Assembly (NCBI GenBank): GCA_034434875.1
Contig: DAOTYJ010000142.1
Span: 3,926 to 67,925 of the forward strand
Length of the DNA: 64,000 nt
From: Dehalococcoidia bacterium
GTDB taxonomy: Bacteria; Chloroflexota; Dehalococcoidia; JAUQQI01
Direction of reading: 5' to 3'
Shown piece after piece: positions 48,082 to 63,815 of the stretch (the stretch's first letter is position 1; every line of letters begins with the position of its first letter). Under the pieces are notes generated by a model. The model was not told the origin of the DNA. It made no database searches and was given only the letters and a program-made list of their open reading frames with translations. Position numbers and translations under genes: made by a program.

Positions 48082-48513
48082 GTGGCGGCCGGGGAGGGGG
48101 CCTGCGGGGGCGAGCTGGGGCTCCTGCTGAGCCGGCGGCTGGGCCGCCGATTTAAGGGCGGAATTGTCGCCTACTCCAACGCCGCCAAGGCCGAACTTCT
48201 CGGGGTGTCCCCGGAGCTCATCGCCACCGCCGGGGCCGTAAGCCCGGAGGTTGCCCGGGCCATGGCCCGGGGTGCCCGCCGCCTCTTCGGGGCCGACTGG
48301 GGCGTGGCCGAAACGGGCATCGCCGGCCCCCAGACCGGCCGGCGCTCCCCCAAGCCGGCGGGCCTGGCCTACCTGGCCGTCTCCGGCCCCGTCGAGCGGG
48401 TCGTGGAGGTGCGGACGGGAAGGGGCCGGCGGGCCGCCAACCGGCGGGCCTTCGCCCGGGCCGCCCTCGGCCTACTGCTGGCCGTCTGGGAAGAGGCCCA
48501 GCAGTCCGGCTAA
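48082..48513 (+). CDS. CinA C-terminal/PncC-fold protein, degenerate
   Basis: GGIVAYSNAAK, GAVSPEVARAMA, ETGIAGP; AESCTGG replaced by GEGACGG; start uncertain. Confidence 0.7.
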   Translation: MAAGEGACGGELGLLLSRRLGRRFKGGIVAYSNAAKAELLGVSPELIATAGAVSPEVARAMARGARRLFGADWGVAETGIAGPQTGRRSPKPAGLAYLAVSGPVERVVEVRTGRGRRAANRRAFARAALGLLLAVWEEAQQSG

Positions 48514-49443
48514 ATCCCCGGCCCGCAGAAGCTCCCGGCCCCGGCGCCCCCGTTCGTCTTCGGCCAGCAGGCCCGCCCAGACCCGGAAAACGGTCCCGGC
48601 CGGGGGGTAAGGCGGCCCCCCGGCGGCGATAAGCCCCAAAAGTCCCACCCGCAGGCCGTAGGCGTCCAGGGCCTCCCCCTCGGCCGTCAACCGGGGCGGC
48701 CGGAAGGCCCCGGTGGCCTCGATGAACCGGCGGGCCTCGGCCGGAAGGGCCTCGGCCGGGAGGGCGCCGGCGGCGAGGGCCTGCCGGACGGCGGTGGCCG
48801 AAAGGTAGGGGTCGTGCCGCTCCGGGGGGAGGGGCAGGTAGCGGACGTAGGGGGCAAAGGGCCGGTTCTCGGGCCGGGAAAGAAATTCGGCCAGGTCGGC
48901 CTCCGTCCGGCCCGACCGGGGGGCCACGTAAAACCGGCTCAGGGCAAAGAGCCGGCGTAGGGCCGCCTCCCGGTCGGCGTAGTAGCGGGGGTCGAAAATC
49001 TGCACGATTTTGTCGAACCCCACCAGGAACCAGAGCTCCCTTTCGGGGGGCACCGGTCCCGCCCGGAGGGCCTCGGCCTCTTCGACGTAAAGGCCCCGGT
49101 TGGTAAGGACAACCCCCAGCCCTGACCGGGGCCGGCAGTAATCCGTGAGAATCCAGAGGCGGTCGGGCAGGCTCAAGCCCTCGGGTTGCTCTTTGTCGAC
49201 GGTGCGGACCGCCAGCAGAAAGAACACCCCGTCCACCAGCCCCAGGCCCAGGGGGGCCTCGGCCAGGAGGGTGTGGGCGGAGGAGAGGGGGTTGAACGAG
49301 CCGGGCAGCACCCCCACCCGCCCCCCCTCCCCATCCGGGTGGACCACCACGGCCGCGGGGGCGGCCGCCGGGTCAAGGCTCTGGACCAGCCGCCGGAAAT
49401 CGGCGTAGGGGGCCGGGTCCCAGTAACGGAGGGCTTCGGCCAC
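48472..49443 (-). CDS. NadD/Pof1-like nucleotidyltransferase (putative NMN/NaMN adenylyltransferase)
   Basis: LPGSFNPLSSAH, VGFDKIVQIFDPRYY, LSATAVR. Confidence 0.75.
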   Translation of the reverse strand: MAEALRYWDPAPYADFRRLVQSLDPAAAPAAVVVHPDGEGGRVGVLPGSFNPLSSAHTLLAEAPLGLGLVDGVFFLLAVRTVDKEQPEGLSLPDRLWILTDYCRPRSGLGVVLTNRGLYVEEAEALRAGPVPPERELWFLVGFDKIVQIFDPRYYADREAALRRLFALSRFYVAPRSGRTEADLAEFLSRPENRPFAPYVRYLPLPPERHDPYLSATAVRQALAAGALPAEALPAEARRFIEATGAFRPPRLTAEGEALDAYGLRVGLLGLIAAGGPPYPPAGTVFRVWAGLLAEDERGRRGRELLRAGDLAGLLGLFPDGQQ

Positions 49444-49449
49444 GGCCCT

Positions 49450-49980
49450 TCAGCCGAGGGCCGGCCCCTCGGCCAGGATCAGCTCCTTTAAGTCCCGGAT
49501 AAGCCGCCAGCCGGCAAGGTCCGGGTCGGCCGAAAGCTCCCCAAGCTCGGCCACAAGCAGTTCCCGGGCGCCGGGCAGGTGGTCGACCCGGAAGAGGTTT
49601 CGCAGGCGCAGAAGCTGGGCCCGTTGGGCCGGGCCGAAGGCCGGCCGGGTGGCCCAGACTTCGGCCGCCGCCCGGGCCACCTCGACCGCCGGGTCGAGGG
49701 CCCGCTCGATCCGGCTGGCCTGGCGGACGGTGATGAGGCCGCTGGCAATGGAGCCGAGGTAGAGGGCGGCCAGGCCCCCGGCCACGGCCGCCACCCCGAT
49801 AAACGGCGTCCCGTAGATGCCCAGCAGCACCACCAGCGTAAGGGCCGTAAGCCAGCGCCGCTCCCGCTCGAAAAGGTCGAAGACCTGCCTTTCCACCCGC
49901 CGGCGGACCAGCTGGGCCCGCCGCCGGTAGACTTCTTCCACCCAGGCCCAGAGCTCGGCCTCAAAAGTCTCCCCGGCCAT
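49450..49980 (-). CDS. Hypothetical membrane protein
   Basis: 176 aa, two TM segments; TATAAT at 49998-49993 upstream. Confidence 0.7.
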   Translation of the reverse strand: MAGETFEAELWAWVEEVYRRRAQLVRRRVERQVFDLFERERRWLTALTLVVLLGIYGTPFIGVAAVAGGLAALYLGSIASGLITVRQASRIERALDPAVEVARAAAEVWATRPAFGPAQRAQLLRLRNLFRVDHLPGARELLVAELGELSADPDLAGWRLIRDLKELILAEGPALG

Positions 49981-49998: not shown

Positions 49999-50265
49999 TT
50001 AGGCCCGGGCCCCCAGCAGGGGCAAAAGGAGCAGCCTTAAAACTATGACTAAAAGGAGGGTCAGCACCGGTATGTACCGGTCCCCGATGAACCGGGGCGT
50101 TAGCCGCCGGACCGCCCAGAAAAGGGGGTCGGTAAGCCGCCGGAGAAACTCGCTGAAGATGCTCCGGTGGCCGCCGGTAATAAGCTCCAGAACCAGCCGG
50201 CCGATGATGGCCCACATGAAGAGGGCCAGCAGCCAGTTCAGCCCCTCGGCCAGGACCGCCACCAT
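49999..50265 (-). CDS. YggT-like small membrane protein
   Basis: LNWLLALFMWAIIGR...FLRRLTDPLFWAVRRLTP. Confidence 0.75.
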   Translation of the reverse strand: MVAVLAEGLNWLLALFMWAIIGRLVLELITGGHRSIFSEFLRRLTDPLFWAVRRLTPRFIGDRYIPVLTLLLVIVLRLLLLPLLGARA

Positions 50266-50337
50266 CGCCTGCCGCCTAAAAAGGCGGTGCGGGCACGGTG
50301 GGCCGCACCCGCACCGTCGGATGCCGTCCGGCCGGCC

Positions 50338-52272
50338 TCAGTCGTCGGCGCCGGGCTGGGGGGCCGGACCGGGGGCCGGGGCCGCCCCCGGCACCGTAAC
50401 CATCTCGCCCACCGGGATGCGGACCTCGTCCACCATCTGCTGAACCTCCCGGGGCGGCGGGGCGGTGGCCAGGCTCACCCCAACCTGCAGGCCGAAGTTC
50501 ACCGCCATCCCGAAGATGCCCGAGGAGAGGTGGGAAAGGCCAAACAGGTTAAAGGTCGGGAACAGGTAGTTGCCCCACATGTAGATGAGGCACGCCAACA
50601 GACCCCCAATCATCCCGGAAATGGCCCCCCAGGCGTTGGCCCGCTTCCAGAAGATCCCGAGCAGGAGCACCGGGAAGAAGGTCGAGGCCGCCAGGGAGAA
50701 GGCCCAGGCCACCAGCTGGACGATGAGGGCCAGCCTTGGGAAGGCCAGGAAGGCCGCCACCACCGCTGCCACCAGGATCATCACCCGGCCCATCAGGAAG
50801 CGGGTGGCGTAGGTGGCATTCGGGTTGATGGTCTTGGCGTAGATGTCGTGGGCCACGGCCGTGGCGATCACCAGCAGGAGGCCGTCGGCGGTGGAGAGGG
50901 CCGCTGCCAGGCCGCCGGCCGCCACCAGGGCCGCGATGGTGTAGGGCAGGCCGGCCACCTCAGGGGTGGCCAGGACCACGATGTCGGGGTTGATGGTGAG
51001 CTCGGCCCACTGCAGGATGCCGTCGCCGTTGGCGTCCCGGATGGAAAGCAGACCCGTCCGGGCCCAGGCATCCACCCAGCCGGGGAGCTGGTTGATGGGC
51101 TTGCCGATGACGTCGGTCAGGAACTCCCAGCGGGAGAAGGCGGCGTAGGCCGGGGCCGTGAAGTAGAGCAGGTAGATGAAAAAGAGGGACCAGCCGACGC
51201 TGATGCGGGCCTCCTTCGGGTCGGGCACCGTGTAGTAGCGGATCAGGATGTGGGGCAGGCCGGCCGTGCCGGCCATCAGGCAGAAGGTGAGGGCCAGAAA
51301 CTCCCACGGGAAGCCCCGCCAGTCGGTCACGGTGATGGGCGGGGGCGAAGGCAGGTTAAGGCCGGTGGCGTCGTTTATCTGCTTGATGCTGGCCAGGGCC
51401 GAGGCGTTGCTCAGGGCCCACTTGAAAGGCTCAATATAAGACGGCAGGTTGAGCTGCTGCTCGATCCGGGTGATCTCCTGGAGGGCCCGCCCGTACATGA
51501 GCTCGGAGATGGGCACCCCGGTCCGGACCGCCGAAAGGAAAGTCACCGGGATCAGGTAGGCGGTGATAAGGATAATGTACTGGGCCACCTGGGTCCAGGT
51601 GATGGATTTCATCCCGCCCAGGAAGGAGCAGACCAGCACCCCGGCCAGGCCGACGAAGACCCCGACCTCAAAGGGCAGGCCGACGATTCGGCTCATGATG
51701 ATGCCGACGCCCGTGACCTGGGCCGTGACGTAGGTCAGGGAAACGATGATGGCGCAGATGGCAGCCACCACCCGGACCGTCCGCCCCTTCTCCGGGAACC
51801 GGGCGGCCACGAAGTCGGGAATGGTGAACTGGCCGAACTTGCGCAGGTAAGGCGCAAAGAAGAGGGCCAGCAACACGTACCCGCCCGTCCAGCCCATGAT
51901 GTAGGCCAAGCCGTCGTAACCGAGGACGAAGAGGCTGCCGGCCATCGAGATAAAGGAGGCCGCGCTCATCCAGTCGGCCCCGGTGGCCATGCCGTTAAAG
52001 AAGGCGGGCACCCGCCGGCCGGCCACGTAGTACTCGTCGAGCCGCCGGGTGAAGTTCAGGATGCCGATGGCGGCATAAAGCAGAAGTGTAAGGAGCAGAT
52101 AGGCGTAGCCGATGGCCGTCCGCGAAAGGCCGAGGTTCACCTCGAGGACGGCCAGGATGGTGGTAGAGAGCAGGAGCCCGATGACGAAGGCGCCGTAAAT
52201 CCGAACGAGCCGCTGCTGTAATAACTTAACCTCCCGCTTGGATACCCGGGTGTAATAGGTCTCCTGCGACAT
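50338..52272 (-). CDS. Sodium:solute symporter, ActP/VC_2705-like
   Basis: YYVAGR, NGMATGADWMSAASFI, GWTGG, WTQVAQY, GTAGLPHILIRYYT, DANGDG loop. Confidence 0.94.
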   Translation of the reverse strand: MSQETYYTRVSKREVKLLQQRLVRIYGAFVIGLLLSTTILAVLEVNLGLSRTAIGYAYLLLTLLLYAAIGILNFTRRLDEYYVAGRRVPAFFNGMATGADWMSAASFISMAGSLFVLGYDGLAYIMGWTGGYVLLALFFAPYLRKFGQFTIPDFVAARFPEKGRTVRVVAAICAIIVSLTYVTAQVTGVGIIMSRIVGLPFEVGVFVGLAGVLVCSFLGGMKSITWTQVAQYIILITAYLIPVTFLSAVRTGVPISELMYGRALQEITRIEQQLNLPSYIEPFKWALSNASALASIKQINDATGLNLPSPPPITVTDWRGFPWEFLALTFCLMAGTAGLPHILIRYYTVPDPKEARISVGWSLFFIYLLYFTAPAYAAFSRWEFLTDVIGKPINQLPGWVDAWARTGLLSIRDANGDGILQWAELTINPDIVVLATPEVAGLPYTIAALVAAGGLAAALSTADGLLLVIATAVAHDIYAKTINPNATYATRFLMGRVMILVAAVVAAFLAFPRLALIVQLVAWAFSLAASTFFPVLLLGIFWKRANAWGAISGMIGGLLACLIYMWGNYLFPTFNLFGLSHLSSGIFGMAVNFGLQVGVSLATAPPPREVQQMVDEVRIPVGEMVTVPGAAPAPGPAPQPGADD

Positions 52273-52284
52273 CGGCCAACCCCC

Positions 52285-52578
52285 TTACTCCTCTTCTTCC
52301 TCGAAACCGTATTTGCGGTCGATGATGTTGTTCATGATGAGGGCGTAAACGAAGATCAGGATGACGAAGATGGTGATCGAGCCCTGGCTTGCAAGCCAGT
52401 AGCCCAGGGGAAAGCCGGTCAGGATGGTGATGCTGTTAAGGGCCTTGGCGAAGGGCGGGTGGGCGAAGCCGGCCAGCAGCCAGACGATGAAGAGGACCAG
52501 TATCAGCCGGCTGTTCGCCCGCCAGTAGACCCGGATGCGCTCGTCCTGACCGGTGCGTTCCGGCGGCGACTGTTGCAT
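52285..52578 (-). CDS. DUF4212 small symporter partner
   Basis: YWRAN, GFPLGYWLASQGSI, DRKYG; GGAGGAGG RBS. Confidence 0.9.
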   Translation of the reverse strand: MQQSPPERTGQDERIRVYWRANSRLILVLFIVWLLAGFAHPPFAKALNSITILTGFPLGYWLASQGSITIFVILIFVYALIMNNIIDRKYGFEEEEE

Positions 52579-52674
52579 AAGCCTCCTCCTTCGGTCAGGG
52601 TTTAGGTCCTACGTTAGCCTCCGCTCGCCGTTGGGTTCCTTTGGGCGTTTTCCCGGGCATCACCCCCCTTCGGC

Positions 52675-53334
52675 CTATCGGGCCCCGACGGCCAGGAGCA
52701 GGTCCCCCAGGGTTCTGACCCCGAAGCCCTCAAGCCGGGTCAACTGCCGCTGCCAGACCTGGGCGGTGGCCAGGGCGTCGGCGGGGGCGCTGTGGGGCCT
52801 GAACAGCTCCACCCCGTACCGCCTTGCCAGGGCCTCCAGGTCCCAGACGGCAACGGGGTCCGCCCCCGGCGGGCCGCCGGCGGCCTGGGCCTCCAGCCAG
52901 CCCTCTACCCGGCCGATATCCACCCAGCGAAACCGCCCCACCGGAAATCCGGCCCGCTTGAGGAAGGCCCGGTCGAAGCCGACCTTGTGGCCGACGATGA
53001 CGGCCTCCCGGCAGAACGCCGCCAGCTCCGGGAGCACGGCCTCGATGGGCGGGGCGGCAGCCACGTCCGCCGGCCGGATCCGGTGGATGGGCACCGTCGG
53101 GCCCCAGCCGTTCCGCCCGGGCCGCACCAGCCGGTGGAAGGTCTGCCCGATGAGAACCCGGCCCCCCACCATCCTGACGGCCCCGACCTCCAGGATTTCG
53201 TCGATCCCTTCCCGGAGGCCGGTGGTTTCGGTGTCCAGGACGACAAAGGGGACCTCGGCCAGGGGCCGGCCCAGGTCGGCTGGGGCCCCGAACGCCGCAC
53301 CCCGGCAGAGACGGGCCGCCAGCTTTGCCACCAT
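52675..53334 (-). CDS. Stand-alone DEDDh 3'-5' exonuclease-fold protein (DnaQ-like)
   Basis: VLDTETTG, GHKVGFD, HSAPADA; ATG at 53334. Confidence 0.9.
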   Translation of the reverse strand: MVAKLAARLCRGAAFGAPADLGRPLAEVPFVVLDTETTGLREGIDEILEVGAVRMVGGRVLIGQTFHRLVRPGRNGWGPTVPIHRIRPADVAAAPPIEAVLPELAAFCREAVIVGHKVGFDRAFLKRAGFPVGRFRWVDIGRVEGWLEAQAAGGPPGADPVAVWDLEALARRYGVELFRPHSAPADALATAQVWQRQLTRLEGFGVRTLGDLLLAVGAR

Positions 53335-53379
53335 GGTTCCCTTGGACGAATCTGCCTTCACACCTGCCTTCGCCGTTTT

Positions 53380-53466
53380 ATGATAGTTCCGGTTAACAGC
53401 TCCGGCCGCCGATTTGCAGAAATGGCCGGTAATCGGTTGAAAAAGGGGGCGGATCGACACTATACT
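53380..53466. promoter_or_regulatory. Divergent promoters with a shared LytTR-like motif
   Basis: Plus strand TTGAAA-18-TATACT (53437-53466); minus strand -10 TATCAT (53385-53380) with no -35; motif also present at 59666. Confidence 0.6.
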
Positions 53467-53497
53467 GGGAGTGAAATTCCGGGGCGGCACAGCGGGA

Positions 53498-55387
53498 ATG
53501 TCGGCTCAGGCGGTCGCCACCGCCTTCTTAAGCCAGGTCCCACCCTTTCGGTACCTGGATGGGGAGGCCCTGGCCCGGGTCGTGGCCCGGGCCGAAATCC
53601 ACTTCTTCCCAAAGGGCACCCGCATCCTCCAGCGGGACGGCCCCCCGGCCCGGTATCTTTACGTGGTCGAGAAGGGCGGGGTTAAAAAGGCCGTCGGCGA
53701 CGTCACCCTGGAGGTGGCCGGGGAGGGGGAGGTCTTCGGGGTTCTTTCGGCCCTTGAAGGCGACCGCAGCCGGCTGGACGTCATCGCCGTCGAGGATACC
53801 GTCTGCTACGCCATCCCCCGGGACGTGGTCGAGAGCCTGCTGGAAACCCAGCCGAAATTCGCCCGCTTTCTCTACGAGTTCTCCATCCGCCGCTACCTGG
53901 ATTGGAGCCTGGAGGAGCTGGAGCGGTTGCCGGTCCTTACCGGGTCCGGCCGGCTCGTCTTCACCGCCCGGGCCGGGGAGGTGGCCCGCCGGCCTCTGGT
54001 CACCTGCCGGCCGGAGACCACCATCCAGGAGGCCGCCCAGCTCATGACCCGCCACCGGGTAAGCTCGGTGGTGGTCCTCGACCCTGACGGCCGGGCCGCC
54101 GGCATCCTGACCGACTGGGACCTGCGGGAGCGGGTGGTGGCCGCCGGCCGGGATATCCGCCAGCCGGTGGCCAAGGTGATGACCTCCCCGGTCGTCAGCG
54201 TCGATTCGGATACCCCCGTCTACGAGGTGGTGGCCGAGATGGTCCGCCGGGGCATCCACCACCTGGTCGTCACCGAGGCCGGCCTTCCGGCCGGAATGAT
54301 TGCGGGCCACGACCTGATCCTGCTCCAGGGGACCTCGGCCCTCTTTGTGGCCCGGGATATCGAGCGGCGCCACGACCTGCCGGGCCTCAGGCAGGTCGTC
54401 GCCGACTCCCAGCGGGTGGTCCCCTTCCTCCTGCGCCAGGGGATCCGGGCCAGCCAGCTGGGCCGGCTCATGACGGACATCAACGACCGGGTTATCGGCC
54501 GGGTCCTGGAGTTTACCGAGGCCGCCCTGGGCCCGCCCCCGGTCCCCTACTGCTGGCTGGTCCTGGGCAGTGAGGGCCGCCGGGAGCAGACCTTCCGCAC
54601 CGACCAGGACAATGCCCTTATCTACGCCGACCCCCCGGCCCCGGAGGCCGGGGCCGCCCGGGAATACTTTCTGGAGTTCGGCCGGCGGGCCGTCGCCGCC
54701 CTGGTGGAGGCAGGTTTTCCGCCGTGCCCCGGCCGCTACACCGCCGACAACCCCGATTGGGTTCAGCCCCTCTCGGGCTGGAAGGCCCACTTCCGCCGGT
54801 GGGTCGCAACCCCCGAGCCGGAAGCCGTCCTCAACTCCCTGATCTTCTTCGACTTCCGGGGAATCTACGGCGACCTCGGCCTGGCCGACCGGTTGCGGGC
54901 GTATATCAACGAACTGCTGCCGGCCAGCCGCCTCTTTTTGCTTCACCTGGCCTGGCTCTCCACCAAAACCCCGCCGCCCCTGGGCTTTCTCGGGCGGTTC
55001 ATCGTCGAGGCGGGCGGGGAGCACCGCAAGCAGCTCGACCTTAAGGCCCGGGGCACCCGGCCCATCCTCGACCTGGCCCGCTTCCTGGCCCTGCGCCACG
55101 GCGTGGCCGATACCAGCACCGTCGGCCGGCTGGAGGCCCTCCAGGCCGCCGGCAAAATCCCACCCGACCTGGCCGACGAGCTTACCCAGGCCTTTGAGTT
55201 CATCCTGGGCCTGCGGATCCGGAACCAGTGGGCGAAAATTCAGGCCGGAAAGGCCCCCGACAACTTCGTCGACCCCGGCCAGCTCTCGGCCCTGGAGCGG
55301 AGCCTGCTTAAGGAGGCCTTTAAGGCCGTGGGCCGGGCCCAGGCCGTGGTCCGTCAGGAATACCATGCCGACCTGGTGGCCGATTAG
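53498..55387 (+). CDS. cNMP-binding, CBS-pair and DUF294 nucleotidyltransferase protein
   Basis: N-terminal cNMP fold, two CBS domains, LGSEGRREQ..TDQDNA, DFRGIYG, LDLKARG. Confidence 0.92.
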   Translation: MSAQAVATAFLSQVPPFRYLDGEALARVVARAEIHFFPKGTRILQRDGPPARYLYVVEKGGVKKAVGDVTLEVAGEGEVFGVLSALEGDRSRLDVIAVEDTVCYAIPRDVVESLLETQPKFARFLYEFSIRRYLDWSLEELERLPVLTGSGRLVFTARAGEVARRPLVTCRPETTIQEAAQLMTRHRVSSVVVLDPDGRAAGILTDWDLRERVVAAGRDIRQPVAKVMTSPVVSVDSDTPVYEVVAEMVRRGIHHLVVTEAGLPAGMIAGHDLILLQGTSALFVARDIERRHDLPGLRQVVADSQRVVPFLLRQGIRASQLGRLMTDINDRVIGRVLEFTEAALGPPPVPYCWLVLGSEGRREQTFRTDQDNALIYADPPAPEAGAAREYFLEFGRRAVAALVEAGFPPCPGRYTADNPDWVQPLSGWKAHFRRWVATPEPEAVLNSLIFFDFRGIYGDLGLADRLRAYINELLPASRLFLLHLAWLSTKTPPPLGFLGRFIVEAGGEHRKQLDLKARGTRPILDLARFLALRHGVADTSTVGRLEALQAAGKIPPDLADELTQAFEFILGLRIRNQWAKIQAGKAPDNFVDPGQLSALERSLLKEAFKAVGRAQAVVRQEYHADLVAD

Positions 55388-55398
55388 GGGGTTCTGCC

Positions 55399-55827
55399 GT
55401 GGCCGAAGGGGTTGAAGAAAGGCCCGCCGACCGGGAAGCCGCCGAGCCGGCCCTGGAGCTGGCCGACACGGCCGAGGAGATCGAGGTCTACCTGGCCGAG
55501 CTGGGCCGCTTCTGGGCCGAGGAGGAGCAAGCCCTCATTCAGGAGGTTGCCGAGCAGACCACCTACGGGGCCATCCTCCTGGAGGACCTGATCCGCCGCC
55601 AGCTCCGGCTCGGCCTGGGGGTGGCCGCCCTCTTCCTCGGGGTCCTTTTCAGCCTGCCCATCGCCTAGCTGGCCATGCCCGAGCTTATGGGCCTGCGCCT
55701 CTTCGGCCTGCCCCTCGGCTGGCTCATTCCGGCCGCCCTGATCTACCCCTTCGTCTGGGTCCTGGCCAGGTTCTACGCCGGCCGGGCCCGCCGCTACGAG
55801 GAAGAATTCCGGGAGCTTCTGCGCTAG
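55399..55827 (+). pseudogene. DUF485-like small symporter partner interrupted by an in-frame TAG at 55666-55668
   Basis: LIRRQLRLGL...LPIA*LAMPEL...GLPLGWL...YPFVW...RRYEEEF; frame continues 52 codons to TAG 55825, 1 nt before the symporter. Confidence 0.75.
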
Positions 55828-55828
55828 G

Positions 55829-57637
55829 ATGCTTACCCCCGGCGGGATCCACTGGCTTTCCCTCCTCACCTTCTTCGGGGTGGCCGTGGCGGCCGTCGGG
55901 GTCGGCCTCTACACCACCCGGGTGGTCCGGACCACCTCGGATTACTTCGTCGCCTCCCGGATGGTGAGCCCCCTTCTTAACGCCTCGGCCATCGCCGGGG
56001 AATATTTAAGCGCCGCCTCGTTCATGGGGGTGGCGGCGATGGTAATGGCCTTCGGCTACGACGTCCTCTGGTACCCGGTGGGCTACGCCGCCGGGTATCT
56101 CTTTCTTCTCCTCTTCGTGGCCGCCCCCCTCCGCCGCTTCGGGGCCTACACCGTCCCCGACTTTGCCGAGGGCCGCTTCGACTCCCCCGCCTTCCGGCGG
56201 GTCGCCGTCGTCTTTGTCCTGGTCGTCGGCATCTTCTACATGCTTCCCCAGATGAAGGGGGCCGGCCTCACCTTCAACGCCCTGACCGGGGCCCCCTACT
56301 GGGTGGGGGTCGTGGTGGTGGGAAGTGTCATCACCTTAAACGTGGCCCTGGGCGGAATGAAGGGCATAACCTACGTCCAGACCTTCCAGTTCTGGGTCAA
56401 GCTCTTCGCCCTGACCCTTCTGGGCCTGGGGGTGATGGCCGTGGCCGGCTGGTACGGGTCCCATTTCGAGCGGGTGAGCGGCCCGGAACCCTTGAGGTTT
56501 CCCGAGGCCAAGGTGGTTTCCCACCAGGCCGGGGCCGTCTTAAGGCTCCCGGAGCCGGCCCGGGTCCGGGCCCTGGACCCCGTAGCCCTTGAGCTTCCCG
56601 GGGGCGAGGTCCGACAGATACCCGCCGGTGAGGCCATTACCCTCCCGCCGGGCCCGAGCCGGGTGGTGGCCGGGGGGAGGCTCGAGTACCAGGCGGGGTC
56701 CCCCGTTCCCAACGCCCCGGTGGGGGAGAGCTGGGCAAAGCCCTTCGGGCCCTTCACCAGCGGCCTCGGCTACCCCTTAATCTTCACCTACTCGCTGATG
56801 GTCGCCACCGTCCTGGGCACCGCCGGCCTGCCCCACATCCTGGTGCGGTTTTACACCAACAAGGACGGGGAGGCCGCCCGCCAGACGACCATCATCGTTA
56901 TCGGCCTCATCGGCCTTTTCTACCTGTTCCCGCCCCTCATCGGCACCCTGGGCCGGTCGCTGGTCCCCGAGCTCTACGCCTCGGGCCAGACGGAGACGCT
57001 TTTGCTCACCCTGCCGTCGGCGGTGGGGCCGGAATGGCTGAGCCGGCTGCTGGAGGCGGTGGTGGCGGCCGGGGCCTTCAGCGCCTTCATGTCCACCACC
57101 TCCGGGCTGATGGTGGCGGTGGCCGGGGCCCTGGCCCACGACGTCTACGCCCGCACCCTCCGGCCCCGGGCCAGCTCCCGGGCCCGGCGGCTGGCCTTCC
57201 AGGTTTCGGCCCTCCTGGCCGGCCTCGTCGCCATCGCCGCCGGCATCCAGGTGGAGCGGTTCGCCATCAACATGCTGGTGGGCTGGGCCTTCGCCATCTC
57301 CGCCGCCTCGTTCTTCCCCCTGCTCACCCTGGGAATCTGGTGGAAGGGGCTCACCCTGCCCGGGGCGATGGCCGGAACGGTAATCGGGGGCATCTCGGCC
57401 TCGGTGGCCATCCTGGCCACCATGTGGCTGGCCCCCCTGGACCTGGGGGCCTCGGAGTCCCTGCTCTGGACCCTCCTGGCCCAGCCGGCCATCTGGGCCA
57501 TCCCCATCGCCTTCGGCACCATGGTGGGGGTCTCCCGCCTGACCCGGGACCGGGTGCCCCTGGACATCAACCTAAAGATGCTGCGGATGCACGTCCCCGA
57601 ACAGCTTGGGTTGCGGACGGAGTATATTAGAGAATAA
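55829..57637 (+). CDS. Sodium:solute symporter (cation/acetate symporter-like) with an extracytoplasmic insert
   Basis: DYFVASR, NASAIAGEYLSAASF, RRFGAYT, GGMKGIT, GTAGLPHILVRFYTN. Confidence 0.93.
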   Translation: MLTPGGIHWLSLLTFFGVAVAAVGVGLYTTRVVRTTSDYFVASRMVSPLLNASAIAGEYLSAASFMGVAAMVMAFGYDVLWYPVGYAAGYLFLLLFVAAPLRRFGAYTVPDFAEGRFDSPAFRRVAVVFVLVVGIFYMLPQMKGAGLTFNALTGAPYWVGVVVVGSVITLNVALGGMKGITYVQTFQFWVKLFALTLLGLGVMAVAGWYGSHFERVSGPEPLRFPEAKVVSHQAGAVLRLPEPARVRALDPVALELPGGEVRQIPAGEAITLPPGPSRVVAGGRLEYQAGSPVPNAPVGESWAKPFGPFTSGLGYPLIFTYSLMVATVLGTAGLPHILVRFYTNKDGEAARQTTIIVIGLIGLFYLFPPLIGTLGRSLVPELYASGQTETLLLTLPSAVGPEWLSRLLEAVVAAGAFSAFMSTTSGLMVAVAGALAHDVYARTLRPRASSRARRLAFQVSALLAGLVAIAAGIQVERFAINMLVGWAFAISAASFFPLLTLGIWWKGLTLPGAMAGTVIGGISASVAILATMWLAPLDLGASESLLWTLLAQPAIWAIPIAFGTMVGVSRLTRDRVPLDINLKMLRMHVPEQLGLRTEYIRE

Positions 57638-57652
57638 AAATGGTGGGTTCCG

Positions 57653-58870
57653 ATGGAGACCCTGCCGCTGGTCCTGGCCGAGCTGATGGCGGTGGTCGCC
57701 GTTGCGGGCGGGGTTGCCCTCCTTCTTGCCCGCCGGAGCCGGACGGTCAGTGAGGGCCGGGAGCAGGCGATGCTGGAAACCCTCCACCTGGCCAACCACA
57801 CCCTGCCCTACCTGCGCCACGGCCTTAATCCCCACACCGCCGAACGGACGGTCAAGCTGATCTACGATTACCTGCGGCCCAGCGCGGTGGCCCTGGTGGG
57901 CAACGGGGTTATCCTGGCCTTTGTCGGGGCCGGGAGCGACCACCACCGGCCCGGGACCCCGGCCCTCACTCAGGTTACCCGGGAGGTCCTGCGGACGGGC
58001 CGGCCCATCGTCGCCCCCAATCCCAGCACCATCGGCTGCAACAACCCGAACTGCCCCCTGCAGTCGGCCGTCGTTGTCCCCCTGCGGGTCCGGGGTCGGA
58101 CCGTCGGCTGCCTGAAGATTTATTACGACGGCGACCAGGCCCTCACCCCGACCCGGATCCGGGTCGCCGACAGCCTGGGGCGGCTGATGAGCATCCAGAT
58201 GGAGCTGGCCGAGCTGGACCGCCAGACCGAGCGGCTGGCCCGGGCCGAGCTGGCCGCCCTGCAGGCCCAGATCTCCCCCCACTTTATCTACAACACCTTA
58301 AACACTATCGCCGCCTTTATCCGGACGAACCCCGAGCAGGCCCATGAACTGCTGGTGGAGTTTGCCGACTTCACCCGCCGGGCCTTCAAGCGCCGGGGCG
58401 AATTCGCCTCCCTGGCCGACGAGCTGGAATACGTCCACCAGTATCTCACCTTGGAGAAGGCCCGCTACGGCGACCGGCTGGAGGTGGTCTACCGGGTGGA
58501 CCCGGAGGTGCTGCCCGTTTCGGTGCCAGTCCTGGTCCTGCAGCCCCTGGTGGAAAACGCCATCCGCCACGGCATCAGCCGGAAGGTGGGGCCGGGGCGG
58601 GTGGTGATCACCGCCGAGGACCGGGGCAACGAGGTGCTCATCACCGTGAGCGACAACGGGGTCGGGATGACCCCCGAACAGGTAAAGCAGGTGCTGAGCT
58701 CCGACCCCCGACAGCGGGGCGGCCTGGGCCTGGCCAACGTCAGCGAGCGGCTTAAAAGCATCTACGGCCCGGAGCGGGGCCTTGAGGTCCAGTCGGCCCC
58801 CGGCCAGGGCACCCAGGTGCGGTTCGTCATACCCAAATTCCACGCCGGGGTGGCGGTGGGGCGTCGATGA
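57653..58870 (+). CDS. LytS/YehU-type histidine kinase (1 TM, GAF, kinase)
   Basis: LQAQISPHFIYNTLN, QPLVENAIRHG, DNGVG, GLGLANV. Confidence 0.92.
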   Translation: METLPLVLAELMAVVAVAGGVALLLARRSRTVSEGREQAMLETLHLANHTLPYLRHGLNPHTAERTVKLIYDYLRPSAVALVGNGVILAFVGAGSDHHRPGTPALTQVTREVLRTGRPIVAPNPSTIGCNNPNCPLQSAVVVPLRVRGRTVGCLKIYYDGDQALTPTRIRVADSLGRLMSIQMELAELDRQTERLARAELAALQAQISPHFIYNTLNTIAAFIRTNPEQAHELLVEFADFTRRAFKRRGEFASLADELEYVHQYLTLEKARYGDRLEVVYRVDPEVLPVSVPVLVLQPLVENAIRHGISRKVGPGRVVITAEDRGNEVLITVSDNGVGMTPEQVKQVLSSDPRQRGGLGLANVSERLKSIYGPERGLEVQSAPGQGTQVRFVIPKFHAGVAVGRR

Positions 58871-59634
58871 GCGGCCTTAGCCCGACGACCGTCGGCCTGC
58901 CCACCTTAAAGGCCCTCATCGTGGACGATGAGGAGCCGGCAACGGTCGAACTAAAATACCGGCTTCAGGAGACCGGCTGGCCCGTGCAGGTGAGCATCGC
59001 CCTTACGGCCACCGACGCCCTCAGGCTCCTGCGCCAGCGGGACTTCGACGTGGTCTTTTTAGACATCCAGATGCCGGGCCTCACGGGCCTGGAGCTGGCC
59101 GAGGTCCTGGCCGAGTTCAGCCGGCCGCCGGTGGTGGTCTTCGTCACCGCCTACGACGAGTACGCCGTCCGGGCCTTCGAACTGCGGGCGGCCGACTACC
59201 TGCTGAAGCCGGTCCGGGTCGAGCGGCTCATCGAGACCCTGGAACGGGTGCGGGAACGGCGCTACCCGGGGCCGAAGGCCGAAGCCCCCCGGTTTCAGCT
59301 GATCGACCGGCTCCCGGTGGAAAAATCCGGCCGCACCCTGCTCATCGACCTGGCCGAGGTCCGGTTCGCCGAGGCCCACGACGAGCTGGTCCTGGTCAAA
59401 ACCTACGACCAGGTCTACACCGTCCGGTTCACCATGAACGAGCTGGAGGCCCGGCTGCCCAACCCCCCGTTTCTGCGGGTCCACCGCTCCTTCATCGTCA
59501 ACTTAAAGCGGGTGGTGGAGATCCGGCCGTATTTCAACGGGGTCTATTTACTTAAAGTCGACGACAAGGAGCGCACCGAAATTACCGTCAGCCGGGGGCA
59601 CGTTCGCAGTCTGCGGAATCTCCTGGGAATTTAG
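58867..59634 (+). CDS. LytTR-family response regulator
   Basis: IVDDE, FLDIQMP, FVTAYD, DYLLKP, FLRVHRSFIVN, VSR. Confidence 0.95.
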   Translation: MSGLSPTTVGLPTLKALIVDDEEPATVELKYRLQETGWPVQVSIALTATDALRLLRQRDFDVVFLDIQMPGLTGLELAEVLAEFSRPPVVVFVTAYDEYAVRAFELRAADYLLKPVRVERLIETLERVRERRYPGPKAEAPRFQLIDRLPVEKSGRTLLIDLAEVRFAEAHDELVLVKTYDQVYTVRFTMNELEARLPNPPFLRVHRSFIVNLKRVVEIRPYFNGVYLLKVDDKERTEITVSRGHVRSLRNLLGI

Positions 59635-59658
59635 GGCGGCCGGCAGGAATCGGCGGCC

Positions 59659-59746
59659 AATGGCCGAAAAAGGGGGCCGAACGGCAATTTCCGGGAGTTG
59701 AACGCCACCGCCCCCGTTGAGGGGCCGATTTTAAAGCCGTTAGCAT
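59659..59746 (+). promoter_or_regulatory. acs promoter with 21-bp-periodic repeats upstream
   Basis: AATGGC, AACGGC, AACGCC at 59659, 59680, 59701; TTGAGG-18-TAGCAT at 59717-59746. Confidence 0.5.
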
Positions 59747-59810
59747 TGATCGGGTACCGGTTCCGTCCCCTGAGCGTGCCTTTTGCACATCTGGCCGGGA
59801 GGTGCAACCG

Positions 59811-61736
59811 ATGCAGGTGATTAACCCCATCGTCAGGCGGTGGGTTGAGACGGCCCGGGAGGACCCGGAAGGGTTCTGGGCGCGGGCGGCCGAGAAGCTC
59901 CCCTGGTTCCGGAAGTGGGAGCGGACTTTCGAGTGGAACTTCCCCACGTTCCGGTGGTTCATCGGGGGCCGGACGAACCTGGCCTTTAACTGCCTGGACC
60001 GCCAGGTGGCCGCGGGCCGCCCCGGCCAGGCCGCGCTCATTTACATAAACGAGCGGGGTGAGCGCCGAGTCTACACCTATGCCCAGCTCCTGCGGGAGGT
60101 CCGGCGGCTGGCGGCCGCCCTCCGGGGCATGGGCATCCGGAAGGGCGACCGGCTCACCATTTACATGCCCACCAGCCCCGAGGCGATCATGCTGATGCTG
60201 GCGGCGGTCCGGGTCGGGGCCATTCATTCGGTGGTCTTTGCCGGGTTCGGGGCCGGGGCCCTGGCCGACCGGATTGCGGCCAGCGGGTCGCGGCTGGTCT
60301 TTACGGCCGATGTGACCTACCGCAAGGGCCGGGATGTCCGGCTTAAAGAGGTCGTCGACGAGGCCTTGAAGACGGCGGGGGACACCGTGGAGCACGTGGT
60401 GGTCTGGGGCCGGACCGGCCAGGATGTGCCGATGACCCCCGGCCGGGACCTCTTCTGGGAAGATTTCTTAAGGCGGGCCGAGGGCCAGCCGGACGGCTGG
60501 GTTGAGATGGAGGCCAACGAGCCGGCCTACATCCTGGCCACCTCCGGTACGACGGCTAAGCCGAAGCTGGCCGTCCACACCCACGGCGGCTACCAGGTGG
60601 GGATTTACAGCACCGGCCTCTGGTGCTTCGGCCTGCGGCCGGGGGAGGTGTGGTGGTCCACCTCGGACATCGGCTGGGTGGTGGGCCACAGCTACATCGT
60701 CTACGCCCCCCTCCTGGCGGGCTGCGCCACCATCGCCTACGAGGGTGCCCTGGACCACCCCGGGCCCGAAACCTTCTGGCAAATCGTCGAGGACTTCGGG
60801 GTTACGGGAATCTTCACCTCGCCGACGGCCGTAAGGCTGCTTATGCGCTACGGGTCGGGGCCGGCCCGCAAGTTCGACCTCTCGTCCTTGGAGCGGGTCG
60901 TCTGCGCCGGGGAGGTGCTGAACGCCCCGGCCTGGGAGTGGCTCCAGAAGGAGGTTTTAAACGACCGGGTGCCCGTCATCGACCACTGGTGGCAGACGGA
61001 GACGGGCGGGCCGGTCATCGGCAACCCCTACGGCCTGGCCATGCTCCCCATCAAGCCGGGCTCGGCCACCATCCCCCTGCCGGGTATGGAGGTGGGGGTG
61101 ATGACCCCGGAGGGGCAGGAGTGCGGCCCCGGGGAGAAGGGGATTCTGGTGATCAAGCGGCCCTTCCCCAGCCTGACCCCAACCCTCTGGGGGGAGCCGG
61201 AGCGGTATGCCCGGGACTACTGGCAGCGGATTCCCGGCCGGCAGGTCTACTTTACGGGCGATTCGGCCCAGCTGGACGAGGACGGCTACGTCTGGTTTGC
61301 CGGCCGGGCCGACGAAATCATCAAGATTGCCGCCCACCGGATCGGCACCATCGAGGTGGAGACGGCCTTTCTCAAGCACCCGGCCGTGGCCGAGGCCGGG
61401 GTAACCGGCCGGCCCGACGAGGTCCGGGGCGAGGTGGTCTCCGCCTTCGTAGTCCTCAAGCAGGGCTACCAGCCTTCGGAGGAGCTCCGCCGGGAGCTCA
61501 TCGAGACGGTCCGGCGGGAGCTGGGTCCGGTGGCCGTCATCGGCGAGGTAAACTTTGTAAACATGCTGCCCAAGACCCGCAGTGGTAAAATTATGCGAAG
61601 GGTCCTTAAGGCCGTGATCCTCAACCGGGACCCCGGCGACATAACCACCATCGAAGACGAGGGCTCGGTGGAGGAGGCCCGCCAGGCCTGGCAGCAGATG
61701 CGGGCCGAGATTCAGGCCCCCATTGGGGATAACTAG
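59811..61736 (+). CDS. Acetyl-/short-chain acyl-CoA synthetase, divergent paralog
   Basis: TSGTTAKPK, DIGWVVGHSY, DHWWQTETG, GRADE, LPKTRSGKIMRR; ATG behind GGAGG. Confidence 0.92.
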   Translation: MQVINPIVRRWVETAREDPEGFWARAAEKLPWFRKWERTFEWNFPTFRWFIGGRTNLAFNCLDRQVAAGRPGQAALIYINERGERRVYTYAQLLREVRRLAAALRGMGIRKGDRLTIYMPTSPEAIMLMLAAVRVGAIHSVVFAGFGAGALADRIAASGSRLVFTADVTYRKGRDVRLKEVVDEALKTAGDTVEHVVVWGRTGQDVPMTPGRDLFWEDFLRRAEGQPDGWVEMEANEPAYILATSGTTAKPKLAVHTHGGYQVGIYSTGLWCFGLRPGEVWWSTSDIGWVVGHSYIVYAPLLAGCATIAYEGALDHPGPETFWQIVEDFGVTGIFTSPTAVRLLMRYGSGPARKFDLSSLERVVCAGEVLNAPAWEWLQKEVLNDRVPVIDHWWQTETGGPVIGNPYGLAMLPIKPGSATIPLPGMEVGVMTPEGQECGPGEKGILVIKRPFPSLTPTLWGEPERYARDYWQRIPGRQVYFTGDSAQLDEDGYVWFAGRADEIIKIAAHRIGTIEVETAFLKHPAVAEAGVTGRPDEVRGEVVSAFVVLKQGYQPSEELRRELIETVRRELGPVAVIGEVNFVNMLPKTRSGKIMRRVLKAVILNRDPGDITTIEDEGSVEEARQAWQQMRAEIQAPIGDN

Positions 61737-61757
61737 CCCGAAGGAGGTCGATGCGGA

Positions 61758-63752
61758 ATGGCTAACGGCGACGAGCGCGCGGAAGTCCGGAATCGGATCC
61801 TGGTCGAAAGCCTCCTTAAAGAGGAGCGAAGGTTTCCGCCCCCGCCGGAGTTCCGGGAGAAGGCCTGGGTTAAAGACTGGACGCCCTGGGAGGAGGCCGA
61901 GCGGGACCTGGAGGGCTTCTGGGCCAAGCACGCCGAGGCCGAGCTCCACTGGTTCCGCAGGTGGGATAAGGTCCTGGAGTGGAACGTCCCCTGGGCGAAG
62001 TGGTTTGTGGGGGGCGTGATCAACGCCTGCTATAACTGTGTCGACCGCCACGCCCAGAGCTGGCGCCGGACCAAGGCGGCCATCGTCTGGGAGGGGGAGC
62101 CCGGCGACTGGCAGGTGCTCACCTACCAGGACCTGCACCGGGAGGTCCAGAAGTTCGCCAACGTCCTTAAGGGCCTGGGGGTTCAGAAGGGCGACCGGGT
62201 GACGATTTACCTGGGGATGGTGCCCGAGCTGCCCATCGCCATGCTCGCCTGCGCCCGGATCGGGGCGCCCCACAGCGTGGTCTTCGGCGGCTTCAGCTCC
62301 GATGCCCTGCGGGACCGGATCCAGGACGCCCAGGCCAAGGTGCTCATCACCCAGGACGGGGCCTGGCGGCGGGGCAACATCGTGCCCCTGAAGCAGTTTG
62401 CGGACAAGGCCCTGGAGGAGTGCCCCTCCGTTGAGAAGGTGGTTGTGGTCCGGCGGGTGGGGGAGCAGTCCGGGGCGAGGCGGGTGGCGGGCCGGGATTT
62501 CTGGTGGGACGAGCTTATGGCCAAGGCCGACCCGGTCTGCCCGGCCGAACCCTTAGACTCGGAGCATCCGCTCTACATCCTCTACACCTCCGGCACCACC
62601 GGCAAGCCCAAGGGCGTCCTCCACACCACCGGCGGCTATCTGTTGGGGGTGCACCTGACCACCAAGTGGGTCTTCGACCTCAAGGACGAAGACTACTACT
62701 GGTGTACGGCCGACATCGGCTGGGTGACCGGCCACAGCTACATCGTCTACGGGCCCCTTTCCAACGGTGGCACCTCGGTGATGTACGAGGGCGCGCCCGA
62801 CTGGCCGGATAAGGACCGCTTCTGGGCCATCGTCGAGAAGTACCGCATCAACATCCTCTACACCTCCCCCACCCTCATCCGGACGGTGATGAAGTGGGGT
62901 CCGGAGTACCCGGCCCGGCACGACCTTTCGAGCCTGCGGCTTCTGGGCACCGTGGGCGAGCCCATCAACCCCGAGGCCTGGATGTGGTACCACGAGCACA
63001 TCGGCCATGGCCGCTGCCCCATCGTGGACACCTGGTGGCAGACCGAGACCGGGATGATCATGATCACCCCGATCCCGGGGGTGGTCACCACCAAGCCGGG
63101 CTCGGCCACCATCCCGTTCCCGGGGGTCGGGGCCGACGTTGTTGACGAGCAGGGCAATCCCTGCCCGCCCAACGTCGGCGGCTACCTGGTGCTCACCCGG
63201 CCCTGGCCGGCCATGCTCCGGACCTTCTGGGGCGACCCCGAACGGTACGTCCAGACCTACTGGAGCCGGTTCCCGGGCCGCTACTTCACCGGGGACGGCG
63301 CCCGCAAGGACGAGGACGGCTACTTCTGGATCACCGGCCGGGTAGACGACGTGGTGAACGTGGCCGGCCACCGGCTCTCCAACATCGAGATCGAGAGCGC
63401 CCTGGTGGCCCACCCGGCAGTGGCCGAGGCGGCCGTCATCGGCCGGAGCGACCCCCTTAAAGGCCAGGCGGTCTCGGCCTTCGTGGTGCTCAAGGCCGGC
63501 TACGAGCCGAGCGACCGGCTTAAAGAGGAGCTCCGGGAGTGGGTGGCCCAGAAGATCAGCCCCATCGCCCGGCCTGCCGACGTCTTCTTCTGCGCCGACC
63601 TGCCCAAGACCCGCTCGGCCAAGATCATGCGCCGGCTCCTGCGGGACATCGCCGAGGGGCGGGCCCTGGGCGACACCACGACCCTGACCGACCCGGCCGT
63701 CATTGAAGAACTGCGCCAGCGCTACATCGCCGAGGGCAAAGAAGAGGCCTAG
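61758..63752 (+). CDS. acs: Acetyl-CoA synthetase (AMP-forming)
   Basis: [59 protein letters not shown]. Confidence 0.96.
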
Positions 63753-63778: not shown

Positions 63779-63815
63779 GGGGCGGGACCGGTTGCCGGTC
63801 CCGCCCCGCCTTTTT
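63779..63815 (+). terminator. Rho-independent terminator after acs
   Basis: 13-bp stem GGGGCGGGACCGG / CCGGTCCCGCCCC, then GCC and T5. Confidence 0.75.

Follow-up and report, generated by a model that had tools for sequence, protein, structure and literature searches.

The pairing of a DUF294-family nucleotidyltransferase with a DEDDh-type exonuclease, which we examine here in a 64-kb stretch of DNA from a Dehalococcoidia bacterium (contig DAOTYJ010000142.1; hereafter, the window), has already been described as PP_0354/PP_0353, Pflu5625, and Sama_1525, in connection with the use of acetate, pyruvate, propionate, and lactate (PMC5715377, PMC9927547, bioRxiv 10.64898/2026.09.07.749794, and bioRxiv 10.1101/072470). 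In Pseudomonas putida (alloputida) KT2440, pp_0354 (transferase) and pp_0353 (exonuclease) form an operon that is bound directly by ErdR, and they belong to the genes with the strongest dependence on the short-chain fatty acid regulator MxtR/ErdR (CrbS/CrbR); Pflu5625 of P. fluorescens is a member of the CrbS/R regulon. Growth on acetate requires neither pp_0354 nor pp_0353. On pyruvate, deletion of pp_0353 caused an impairment like that of an actP-I deletion, whereas deletion of pp_0354 did not (PMC9927547), and on propionate both deletion mutants were impaired. Additionally, a fitness study found DUF4212 and its symporter to be required for the use of D,L-lactate or D-alanine, and the DUF4212 symporter showed cofitness with an "RNase T domain protein" (Sama_1525/Psest_0349). 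Going by the gene numbering, this protein is probably the exonuclease, the label used in the preprint, "COG2905 (RNase T domain protein)," being ambiguous. Finally, a 2026 preprint restates the idea of protein nucleotidylation, likening it to PII uridylylation, and treats the exonuclease as RNase T-like (bioRxiv 10.64898/2026.09.07.749794).

The locus in the window is a Chloroflexota member of this widespread, published cassette, set apart by a divergent layout and by a LytS-type/LytTR regulator pair, and the region around it is an island for the uptake and activation of monocarboxylates of the acetate, pyruvate, propionate, or lactate type. The original prediction, made from the sequence of this locus, was that the transferase and the exonuclease act as writer and eraser of a nucleotide mark on a transport or activation protein, and it had presented this as a new layer of control, subject to a literature check. 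That check showed its novelty to have been overstated, in that the cassette, its acetate-responsive two-component control, and the nucleotidylation idea itself are all published; the notion of the exonuclease as the eraser, on the other hand, was not found in print. Nor did the literature search yield a biochemical study of DUF294, COG2905, or DUF4212, the term DUF294 drawing mostly papers on DUF2946.

The putative writer is a protein of 629 residues (53498 to 55387, plus strand), in which a cNMP_binding domain (54.5 bits) and a pair of CBS domains (92.1 bits) make up the N-terminal half and are followed by DUF294 (PF03445, 168.3 bits; cutoff, 21) and DUF294_C (PF10335, 163.7 bits; cutoff, 22.5). 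Its catalytic motif, LGSEGRREQTFRTDQDN, which supplies G357, S358, D369, Q, and D371 (GS...DxD), was invariant in 72 homologues, and with these residues kept the transferase is predicted to be catalytically intact. The cNMP pocket reads FGV instead of FGE, and since the position was hydrophobic in every homologue aligned, this is a feature of the whole family. A sequence search of the PDB with the DUF294 protein returned CBS and cNMP domains only (AcuB being one of the CBS matches). By sequence, the transferase half thus has no relative of solved structure, and we therefore turned to a predicted model and a fold search. The AlphaFold2 model of residues 289 to 629, built on 72 sequences, reached a mean predicted local distance difference test (pLDDT) score of 92.9 and a predicted template modeling (TM) score of 0.90. 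When it was compared with the PDB by means of Foldseek, just four matches had E values of <1e-3, and all four were protein AMPylators. The top match was the AMPylation domain of DrrA with Rab8a (6yx5_B; TM, 0.69/0.70; sequence identity, 11%), next to the N- and C-terminal domains of GlnE (1v4a and 3k7d; TMq, 0.64 to 0.65); E values ranged from 4e-8 to 1e-6 across these entries, and the match covered the two-domain fold, i.e., the transferase together with the helical substrate-binding domain. According to the model, then, the transferase half shares its fold with the protein-AMPylating GlnE and DrrA, a result that makes modification of a protein more likely than RNA tailing, the synthesis of a signal nucleotide, or the modification of a small molecule. 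We consider it rather probable that DUF294 nucleotidylates a protein.

The putative antagonist is encoded directly next to it, on the opposite strand (52675 to 53334, minus strand), and is a DnaQ-like protein with a DEDDh 3'-5' exonuclease fold (PF00929, 78.4 bits) that is 219 residues long from its ATG, the same length as in the gene call on a nearly identical contig (L084; 99.99% identity over 20.5 kb). The residues of Exo I (D34/E36), Exo II (D121), and Exo III (H181/D186) were invariant or nearly so in 56 homologues. With these alignments, three features that had originally been read from the sequence alone, namely, the intact GS...DxD motif, the degenerate cNMP pocket, and the three intact Exo motifs, were borne out, the second of them as a trait of the entire family. 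The AlphaFold2 model of the exonuclease (pLDDT, 90.6) matched the exonuclease domains of DinG and PolC, epsilon, ExoX, and RNase T in Foldseek, with E values down to 5e-13, and the protein fell far under the cutoffs of the DnaQ equivalogs (TIGR01406, 54.6 versus 222.7 bits; NF004316, 55.8 versus 196 bits). As judged by sequence and model, it is an ordinary DnaQ-type DEDDh hydrolase fold with intact catalytic residues.

DEDDh enzymes release a 5'-nucleoside monophosphate (NMP), the upstream 3'-oxygen being the leaving group. In a nucleotidylated tyrosine (Tyr-O-NMP), that part would fall to the phenolate, a situation that the aryl phosphodiester pNP-TMP would mimic. In a structure of oligoribonuclease (ORN), pNP-TMP is the bound ligand (PMC6390093); for its hydrolysis by epsilon, that paper refers to Hamdan 2002. 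Since DEDDh enzymes bind pNP-TMP and its hydrolysis is cited for one of them, the role of an eraser would, by analogy, be chemically reasonable for such an enzyme.

To place the pair in a wider context, we collected 80 loci from species-representative genomes, picked via an alignment of diverse DUF294 homologues, and scored their open reading frames (ORFs) against the window proteins with phmmer. An exonuclease gene lay within 10 kb (≤10 kb) of the DUF294 gene in 67 of the 80 loci, and in 62 of them it followed directly downstream on the same strand. The next gene after the exonuclease belonged to a symporter unit (DUF4212 plus VC_2705, DUF485 plus ActP, or a convergent yggT-symporter unit) in 50 of the 56 loci in which this could be evaluated, and acs was present in 50 of the 80 loci, in agreement with the co-occurrence with SSS-family symporters and acs that had been expected at the outset. 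The pair spans Chloroflexota, Nitrospirota, Acidobacteriota, Firmicutes, and other phyla. In the Pfam gene tables of a Firmicutes contig and two more contigs, the order was DUF294, RNase_T, DUF485 or DUF4212, SSF, and Acs, and in one of these contexts the module was preceded upstream by genes for a sigma54 regulator and a CrbS-like SSF-kinase. The gene calls for transferase and exonuclease overlap by 14 bp in one locus (L081) and by 1 bp in another (L082), which suggests translational coupling. With the pair present in 62 of the 80 loci, from several phyla, the gene arrangement is far from chance. In the window and in a relative with 91% identity (L001), the two genes lie side by side in divergent orientation, in contrast to the codirectional order in those 62 loci; the divergent layout is the exception, and the pair with its neighbors is the rule.

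Some DUF294 copies stand in other surroundings. Many Nitrospirota loci (L017, L021, L026, L029, L037, L040, L044, L054, L058, L065, and others) have, directly after a regulator of the REC or sigma54 type, a further DUF294 paralogue that lacks an exonuclease of its own. In L079, a second DUF294 copy (11948 to 13876) is spread over four overlapping ORF fragments and is probably a frameshifted pseudogene or the product of an assembly problem. Two exonuclease-less contexts, L012 (amino-acid permease, peptidase C26, and EutA) and L078 (a single REC domain), gave no hint of a target.

The reading that we favor combines these elements as follows. The cNMP-like and CBS domains would sense the energy or metabolite state of the cell (Acs consumes ATP and makes AMP) and would gate the DUF294 transferase, which would attach AMP or UMP as an inhibitory mark to a side-chain hydroxyl in an uptake or activation component, the likeliest target being the symporter complex and the second likeliest Acs. 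The DEDDh enzyme would counter the mark, most simply by hydrolyzing the phosphodiester of Tyr-O-NMP (or of an oligo-NMP) and thereby freeing 5'-NMP. The outcome would be a fast posttranslational brake on carboxylate influx, on top of the two-component transcriptional control. The Pseudomonas genetics fits this scheme: without an eraser, the mark would pile up and uptake would stop, whereas without a writer there would be neither mark nor phenotype, so that an inhibitory mark with an eraser of its own predicts the asymmetry between the two mutants on pyruvate. On propionate, unrestrained influx might itself be harmful, and both mutants would suffer. We regard a write-and-erase switch as plausible and put the probability of the full chain of writer and antagonist at roughly 40%. 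The more specific proposal that the DEDDh protein is a protein de-nucleotidylase, which hydrolyzes Tyr-O-NMP or trims oligo-NMP on a symporter component or on Acs, we advance tentatively and with some doubt.

Several observations weigh against this reading. First, the literature searched contains no report of a nucleotidylated protein for any member of the DUF294 family. Second, DUF294 had originally been called GlnD/GlnE-like, a description that holds for the predicted fold, which puts the protein in the GlnE/DrrA group, but not at the level of Pfam profiles, since the GlnE and GlnD (GlnD_UR_UTase) models did not match the DUF294 protein even at E values of ≤10. Third, nothing in the exonuclease model distinguishes it from 3'-5' exonucleases acting on DNA or RNA, and no fusion of DUF294 and exonuclease domains was seen among the top 120 exonuclease homologues. 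To our knowledge, there is no de-AMPylase with a DEDDh fold either: the known de-AMPylases are the second nucleotidyltransferase domain of GlnE, the HD domain of GlnD, the PP2C-like SidD, and Fic. Furthermore, by phosphorolysis a GlnE-like domain could undo its own reaction, and of the 93 copies of DUF294, 29 lack an exonuclease directly downstream; for these two reasons, a separate eraser is not logically required.

A further point of this kind concerns the acceptor residue, for which a tyrosine in the C-terminal tail (DRKYG) of the DUF4212 protein, the small subunit of the first symporter, had been put forward. This residue is Phe in three loci (L029, L040, and L066), all of which carry the transferase-exonuclease pair, and the loci with ActP-type symporters have no DUF4212 whatsoever. 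At the matching position of DUF485 (W-A-N-x-K/R-Y/F-D), the small subunit that accompanies ActP-type symporters, an alignment filtered by phmmer has Phe in L080; E. coli YjcH has Phe there as well. As the position tolerates Phe, the tail tyrosine is not a general acceptor, its role as an obligatory one being ruled out by the three pair-bearing loci, and this part of the original prediction is not supported. The Phe-tolerant aromatic residue looks structural instead. The C termini of DUF4212 and DUF485 proteins are alike, with a juxtamembrane [RK]-[YF]-[DGE] followed by acidic residues, and an intact DUF485 protein matches the DUF4212 model at 25.6 bits. From these sequences, the two kinds of small subunit appear to be related to each other.

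The same genetics would fit equally well with an arrangement in which the exonuclease is not an eraser but the effector, restrained by the sensor transferase, through nucleotidylation or in another way, in analogy to MNT-HEPN modules, and in which the free nuclease trims or processes a specific RNA (an mRNA 3' end, a small RNA, or a tRNA) needed for expression of the symporter and of acs. The tight pairing and the overlapping gene calls would be expected here too, the unremarkable nucleic-acid exonuclease fold with its intact DEDDh residues agrees with it, loss of the exonuclease but not of the transferase gives the transporter-like phenotype, and DUF294_C shares a Pfam clan with HEPN and KNTase_C domains. 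However, apart from the general DnaQ motifs, no Tyr is invariant in the exonuclease family, and the MNT antitoxin 7bxo gave only an insignificant, partial Foldseek match to the transferase half (E value, 0.6; TMq, 0.21), in contrast to the full-length matches of GlnE and DrrA. The impairment of both mutants on propionate is also less simply explained. Taken together, we consider this explanation unlikely, though a serious competitor.

The fold search also bears on the idea that the pair acts on RNA or nucleotides, the transferase making an untemplated addition to an RNA 3' end or producing a linear or cyclic oligonucleotide signal and the exonuclease trimming or degrading the product. Removal of a 3'-terminal nucleotide is the native chemistry of DEDDh enzymes, and Pol-beta-type transferases and 3'-5' exonucleases are a known antagonistic pair on tRNA ends, as exemplified by the CCA-adding enzyme and RNase T, a parallel that speaks for the idea; Orn, similarly, acts on dinucleotides. 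In the search with the transferase half, however, TUTase 3hiy and the CD-NTase (CdnC) 6p80 were insignificant (E value, ∼1; TM, <0.2), the transferase instead being grouped with GlnE and DrrA, and when the island was scanned with Rfam, no family came close to its gathering score and no structured RNA candidate emerged, which makes such an activity improbable. A small molecule, e.g., a carboxylate-derived metabolite, as the substrate of DUF294, with the exonuclease hydrolyzing the adduct, would find its analogy in the aminoglycoside nucleotidyltransferases, which share the KNTase_C-type second domain and formed the second tier of fold matches. Those matches were weak (TM, ∼0.3; E value, ∼1e-2) compared with the TM values of 0.64 to 0.70 for protein AMPylators, and a large sensory N terminus is typical of signaling proteins, not of detoxifying enzymes, so that we consider this very unlikely. 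Finally, that the exonuclease is a DNA repair or proofreading paralogue that landed beside DUF294 by chance, as its best sequence and fold matches (the PolC, epsilon, and DinG exonuclease domains) might suggest, is hardly credible: the synteny already contradicts it (the two genes are neighbors in 62 of the 80 loci, in several phyla, and their calls overlap in L081 and L082), and it is also at odds with the co-regulation and carbon-source phenotypes in Pseudomonas, the cofitness of Sama_1525/Psest_0349 with the symporter, and scores far under the DnaQ equivalog cutoffs.

In the window, the pair is embedded in an island of eleven genes, including two Acs paralogues, that was delineated by ORF listing and translation and by Pfam and NCBIfam scans; these bore out the gene set named in the original prediction, down to the two acyl-CoA synthetases and the divergent gap of exactly 163 bp between ATG starts (53335 to 53497). 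The start codons used here match the independent gene calls on L084. Downstream of the exonuclease gene, on the minus strand, lie the genes for a DUF4212/TIGR03647 small subunit (52285 to 52578; PF13937, 91.4 bits; TIGR03647, 91.1 bits versus a cutoff of 26) and for symporter 1 (50338 to 52272; PF00474), an SSS-family protein that is assigned to the large subunits of the VC_2705 subfamily by TIGR03648 (734 bits; cutoff, 320.75). With both subunits above their cutoffs and the genes 12 bp apart, this is a two-subunit transporter of the VC_2705 type. The SSF match of symporter 1 falls into two stretches.

Beyond symporter 1 follows a gene for a small membrane protein of the yggT family (49999 to 50265, minus strand; PF02325, 33.9 bits), originally counted as the last member of the same operon. 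The gene is there, but it lies outside the span given for the island at the time, and a terminator-like hairpin on the same strand (50285 to 50316; a 14-bp stem, 11 of its pairs being GC, plus a T-run) separates it from symporter 1. Because of this strong hairpin, yggT may be outside the symporter 1 transcript. In many loci from other phyla, yggT likewise stands 3' of a VC_2705-type symporter, and YggT looks like a conserved partner of these transporters.

On the plus strand, the DUF294 gene is followed by the genes for a DUF485 (YjcH-like) small subunit (55399 to 55827) and for symporter 2 (55829 to 57637), another SSS-family protein (PF00474, 202 bits). The latter scored 205 to 243 bits with the ActP models, under the equivalog and subfamily cutoffs (NF006903, 243 versus 750 bits; TIGR02711, 205 versus 1099 bits), and on this sequence evidence is ActP-like only. 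A Pro/Gly-rich insertion of roughly 60 to 100 residues, at about residues 221 to 320, splits its SSF domain match. The DUF485 ORF of the window is cut into 89 and 52 codons by an in-frame TAG at 55666 to 55668 (variant base, 55668), which is why it has no Pfam match. The same codon is TAC (Tyr) in L001, L084, and a third contig, L085, with a product of 142 amino acids; L084 and L085 are assemblies of the same population as the window. The intact protein of L001 scores 34.7 bits (cutoff, 28), and the copies of L084 and L085 carry Pfam DUF485 in their gene tables. The TAG reflects either a nonsense variant at the strain level or a mistake in the assembly. The family assignment made earlier (DUF485-like) is thus supported by intact relatives that pass the DUF485 cutoff, although the window copy itself is interrupted.

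Next come the genes of the regulators, a LytS-type histidine kinase (57653 to 58870, plus strand; PF06580, PF02518, and GAF) and a REC-LytTR response regulator (58867 to 59634, plus strand; PF00072 and PF04397). The combination of PF06580 (His_kinase) with HATPase in the one and of REC with LytTR in the other identifies them as a LytS/LytTR pair. Pfam detected no 5TM LytS-type membrane sensor domain in the window kinase, which has only GAF and one hydrophobic segment at its N terminus. Encoded directly after symporter 2, the kinase may use the transporter as a cosensor and would then be a split version of CrbS, the kinase in which SSF and kinase parts are joined. A CrbS-like SSF-HisKA kinase was found in L082 and L083; in the window, a sensor of the SSF-STAC-kinase type with its regulator, as in CrbS/CrbR (MxtR/ErdR), is absent. 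Position 58279 is C in the window and T in L084 and L085, a synonymous change in a Pro codon just before the H-box His of the kinase; together with the TAG base at 55668, it is the only difference between the window and these two contigs within the island.

The divergent promoter region (53335 to 53497), which has two sigma70-like sites on the plus strand, shares a block of about 70 nucleotides with the 176-bp region upstream of the first acs gene (59635 to 59810), the two copies lying at 53401 to 53480 and at 59635 to 59700. The core of the block, GAAAAAGGGGGCSGA, has perfect copies only at 53439 and 59666 within the window (the motif upstream of acs reads GAAAAAGGGGGCCGA at 59666 to 59680), and short AAT(C/G)G repeats recur in the block about 11 to 12 nucleotides apart. 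Both copies are conserved in L001 (9900 to 10003 and 16125 to 16235). The block is probably a common operator or promoter and possibly serves the LytTR regulator.

The island ends with the two acs paralogues, both on the plus strand. The first (59811 to 61736) encodes an acetate/propionate-CoA ligase-like protein that is borderline for the Acs equivalog, just under its cutoff (TIGR02188, 723.8 versus 724.95 bits), and above that of the subfamily NF001208 (746.6 versus 657 bits). Its ORF opens at a GTG at 59802, the likely start being the ATG at 59811, and L084 has a call of 641 amino acids. The second, acs2 (61758 to 63752), encodes a clear acetyl-CoA synthetase (TIGR02188, 977 bits; cutoff, 725). 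Both retain the motif Lys (...SGK/SAK IMRR). A terminator-like hairpin after acs2 (63779 to 63807, plus strand; a 13-bp stem with 12 GC pairs) closes the island, which is flanked by unrelated genes (a hydrolase, a PNP oxidase, an MFS transporter, CinA, and two ORFs that match no family). The latter, located beside yggT (48472 to 49443, 323 amino acids, and 49450 to 49980, 176 amino acids, both on the minus strand), have no Pfam family and are called in L084 as well, also without a match.

The window itself, then, holds an ordinary, well-preserved copy of the cassette, and the interest lies in the biochemistry of the widespread module. The pair is conserved from Proteobacteria to Chloroflexota and has been annotated as a "putative nucleotidyltransferase" for more than 25 years, and the predicted fold now narrows the options to protein nucleotidylation. 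If the proposed switch is real, its eraser would be the first with an exonuclease fold for protein AMPylation or UMPylation and would extend the catalytic repertoire of DEDDh enzymes; the switch would represent a new, phylum-spanning posttranslational control of carboxylate uptake, and a fast brake on organic-acid influx would matter for chassis engineering, for acetate overflow, and for the toxicity of propionate.

Among known systems, the island comes closest to PP_0354/PP_0353 and its kin (Pflu5625, the P. aeruginosa homologues beside actP-yjcH, and Sama_1525/Psest_0349), with which it shares the domain architecture (cNMP, two CBS, and nucleotidyltransferase domains, plus an RNase_T-fold exonuclease), the links to actP/yjcH, DUF4212 symporters, and acs, and an acid-responsive two-component system. 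The likeness is one of domain architecture and neighborhood; in contrast to the Pseudomonas operon, the two genes here are divergent, each heading a symporter operon of its own, and the regulators are a LytS-type/LytTR pair instead of CrbS/CrbR (MxtR/ErdR), in a Chloroflexota (Dehalococcoidia-like) host.

The resemblance to GlnE and GlnD lies in the succession of a Pol-beta-type transferase and a helical KNTase_C-type domain, the fold match extending over the full length for both domains of GlnE, and, as far as the proposal goes, in the logic of a metabolite-gated, reversible nucleotidylation of Tyr, GlnD likewise coupling a transferase with a hydrolase domain. Apart from the missing profile match, the differences are in the sensors, which are cNMP-like and CBS domains here and ACT domains or PII dependence there, and in the putative hydrolase, which is a separate DEDDh protein here and an HD domain or a second transferase domain there. 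DrrA (SidM) of Legionella, the best fold match, offers the precedent of a writer with a separately encoded eraser, SidD, which has a PP2C-like fold; unlike the DUF294 protein, with which it has 11% identity, DrrA is a secreted effector that acts on host Rab1 and Rab8. MNT-HEPN modules also place a nucleotidyltransferase gene beside a nuclease gene, MntA oligoAMPylating the RNase HepT and thereby controlling it, and DUF294_C belongs to the same Pfam clan, but the fold match was weak and partial, the partner here is a DEDDh and not a HEPN protein, and the context is not toxin-like. Lastly, reversible posttranslational control of Acs is known from mycobacterial Pat, a cNMP-gated acetyltransferase, with its sirtuin and from AcuA, the CBS protein AcuB, and AcuC; these systems act by Lys acetylation and belong to other enzyme families, whereas in the island the motif Lys of Acs is kept and the proposed mark would be a nucleotide.

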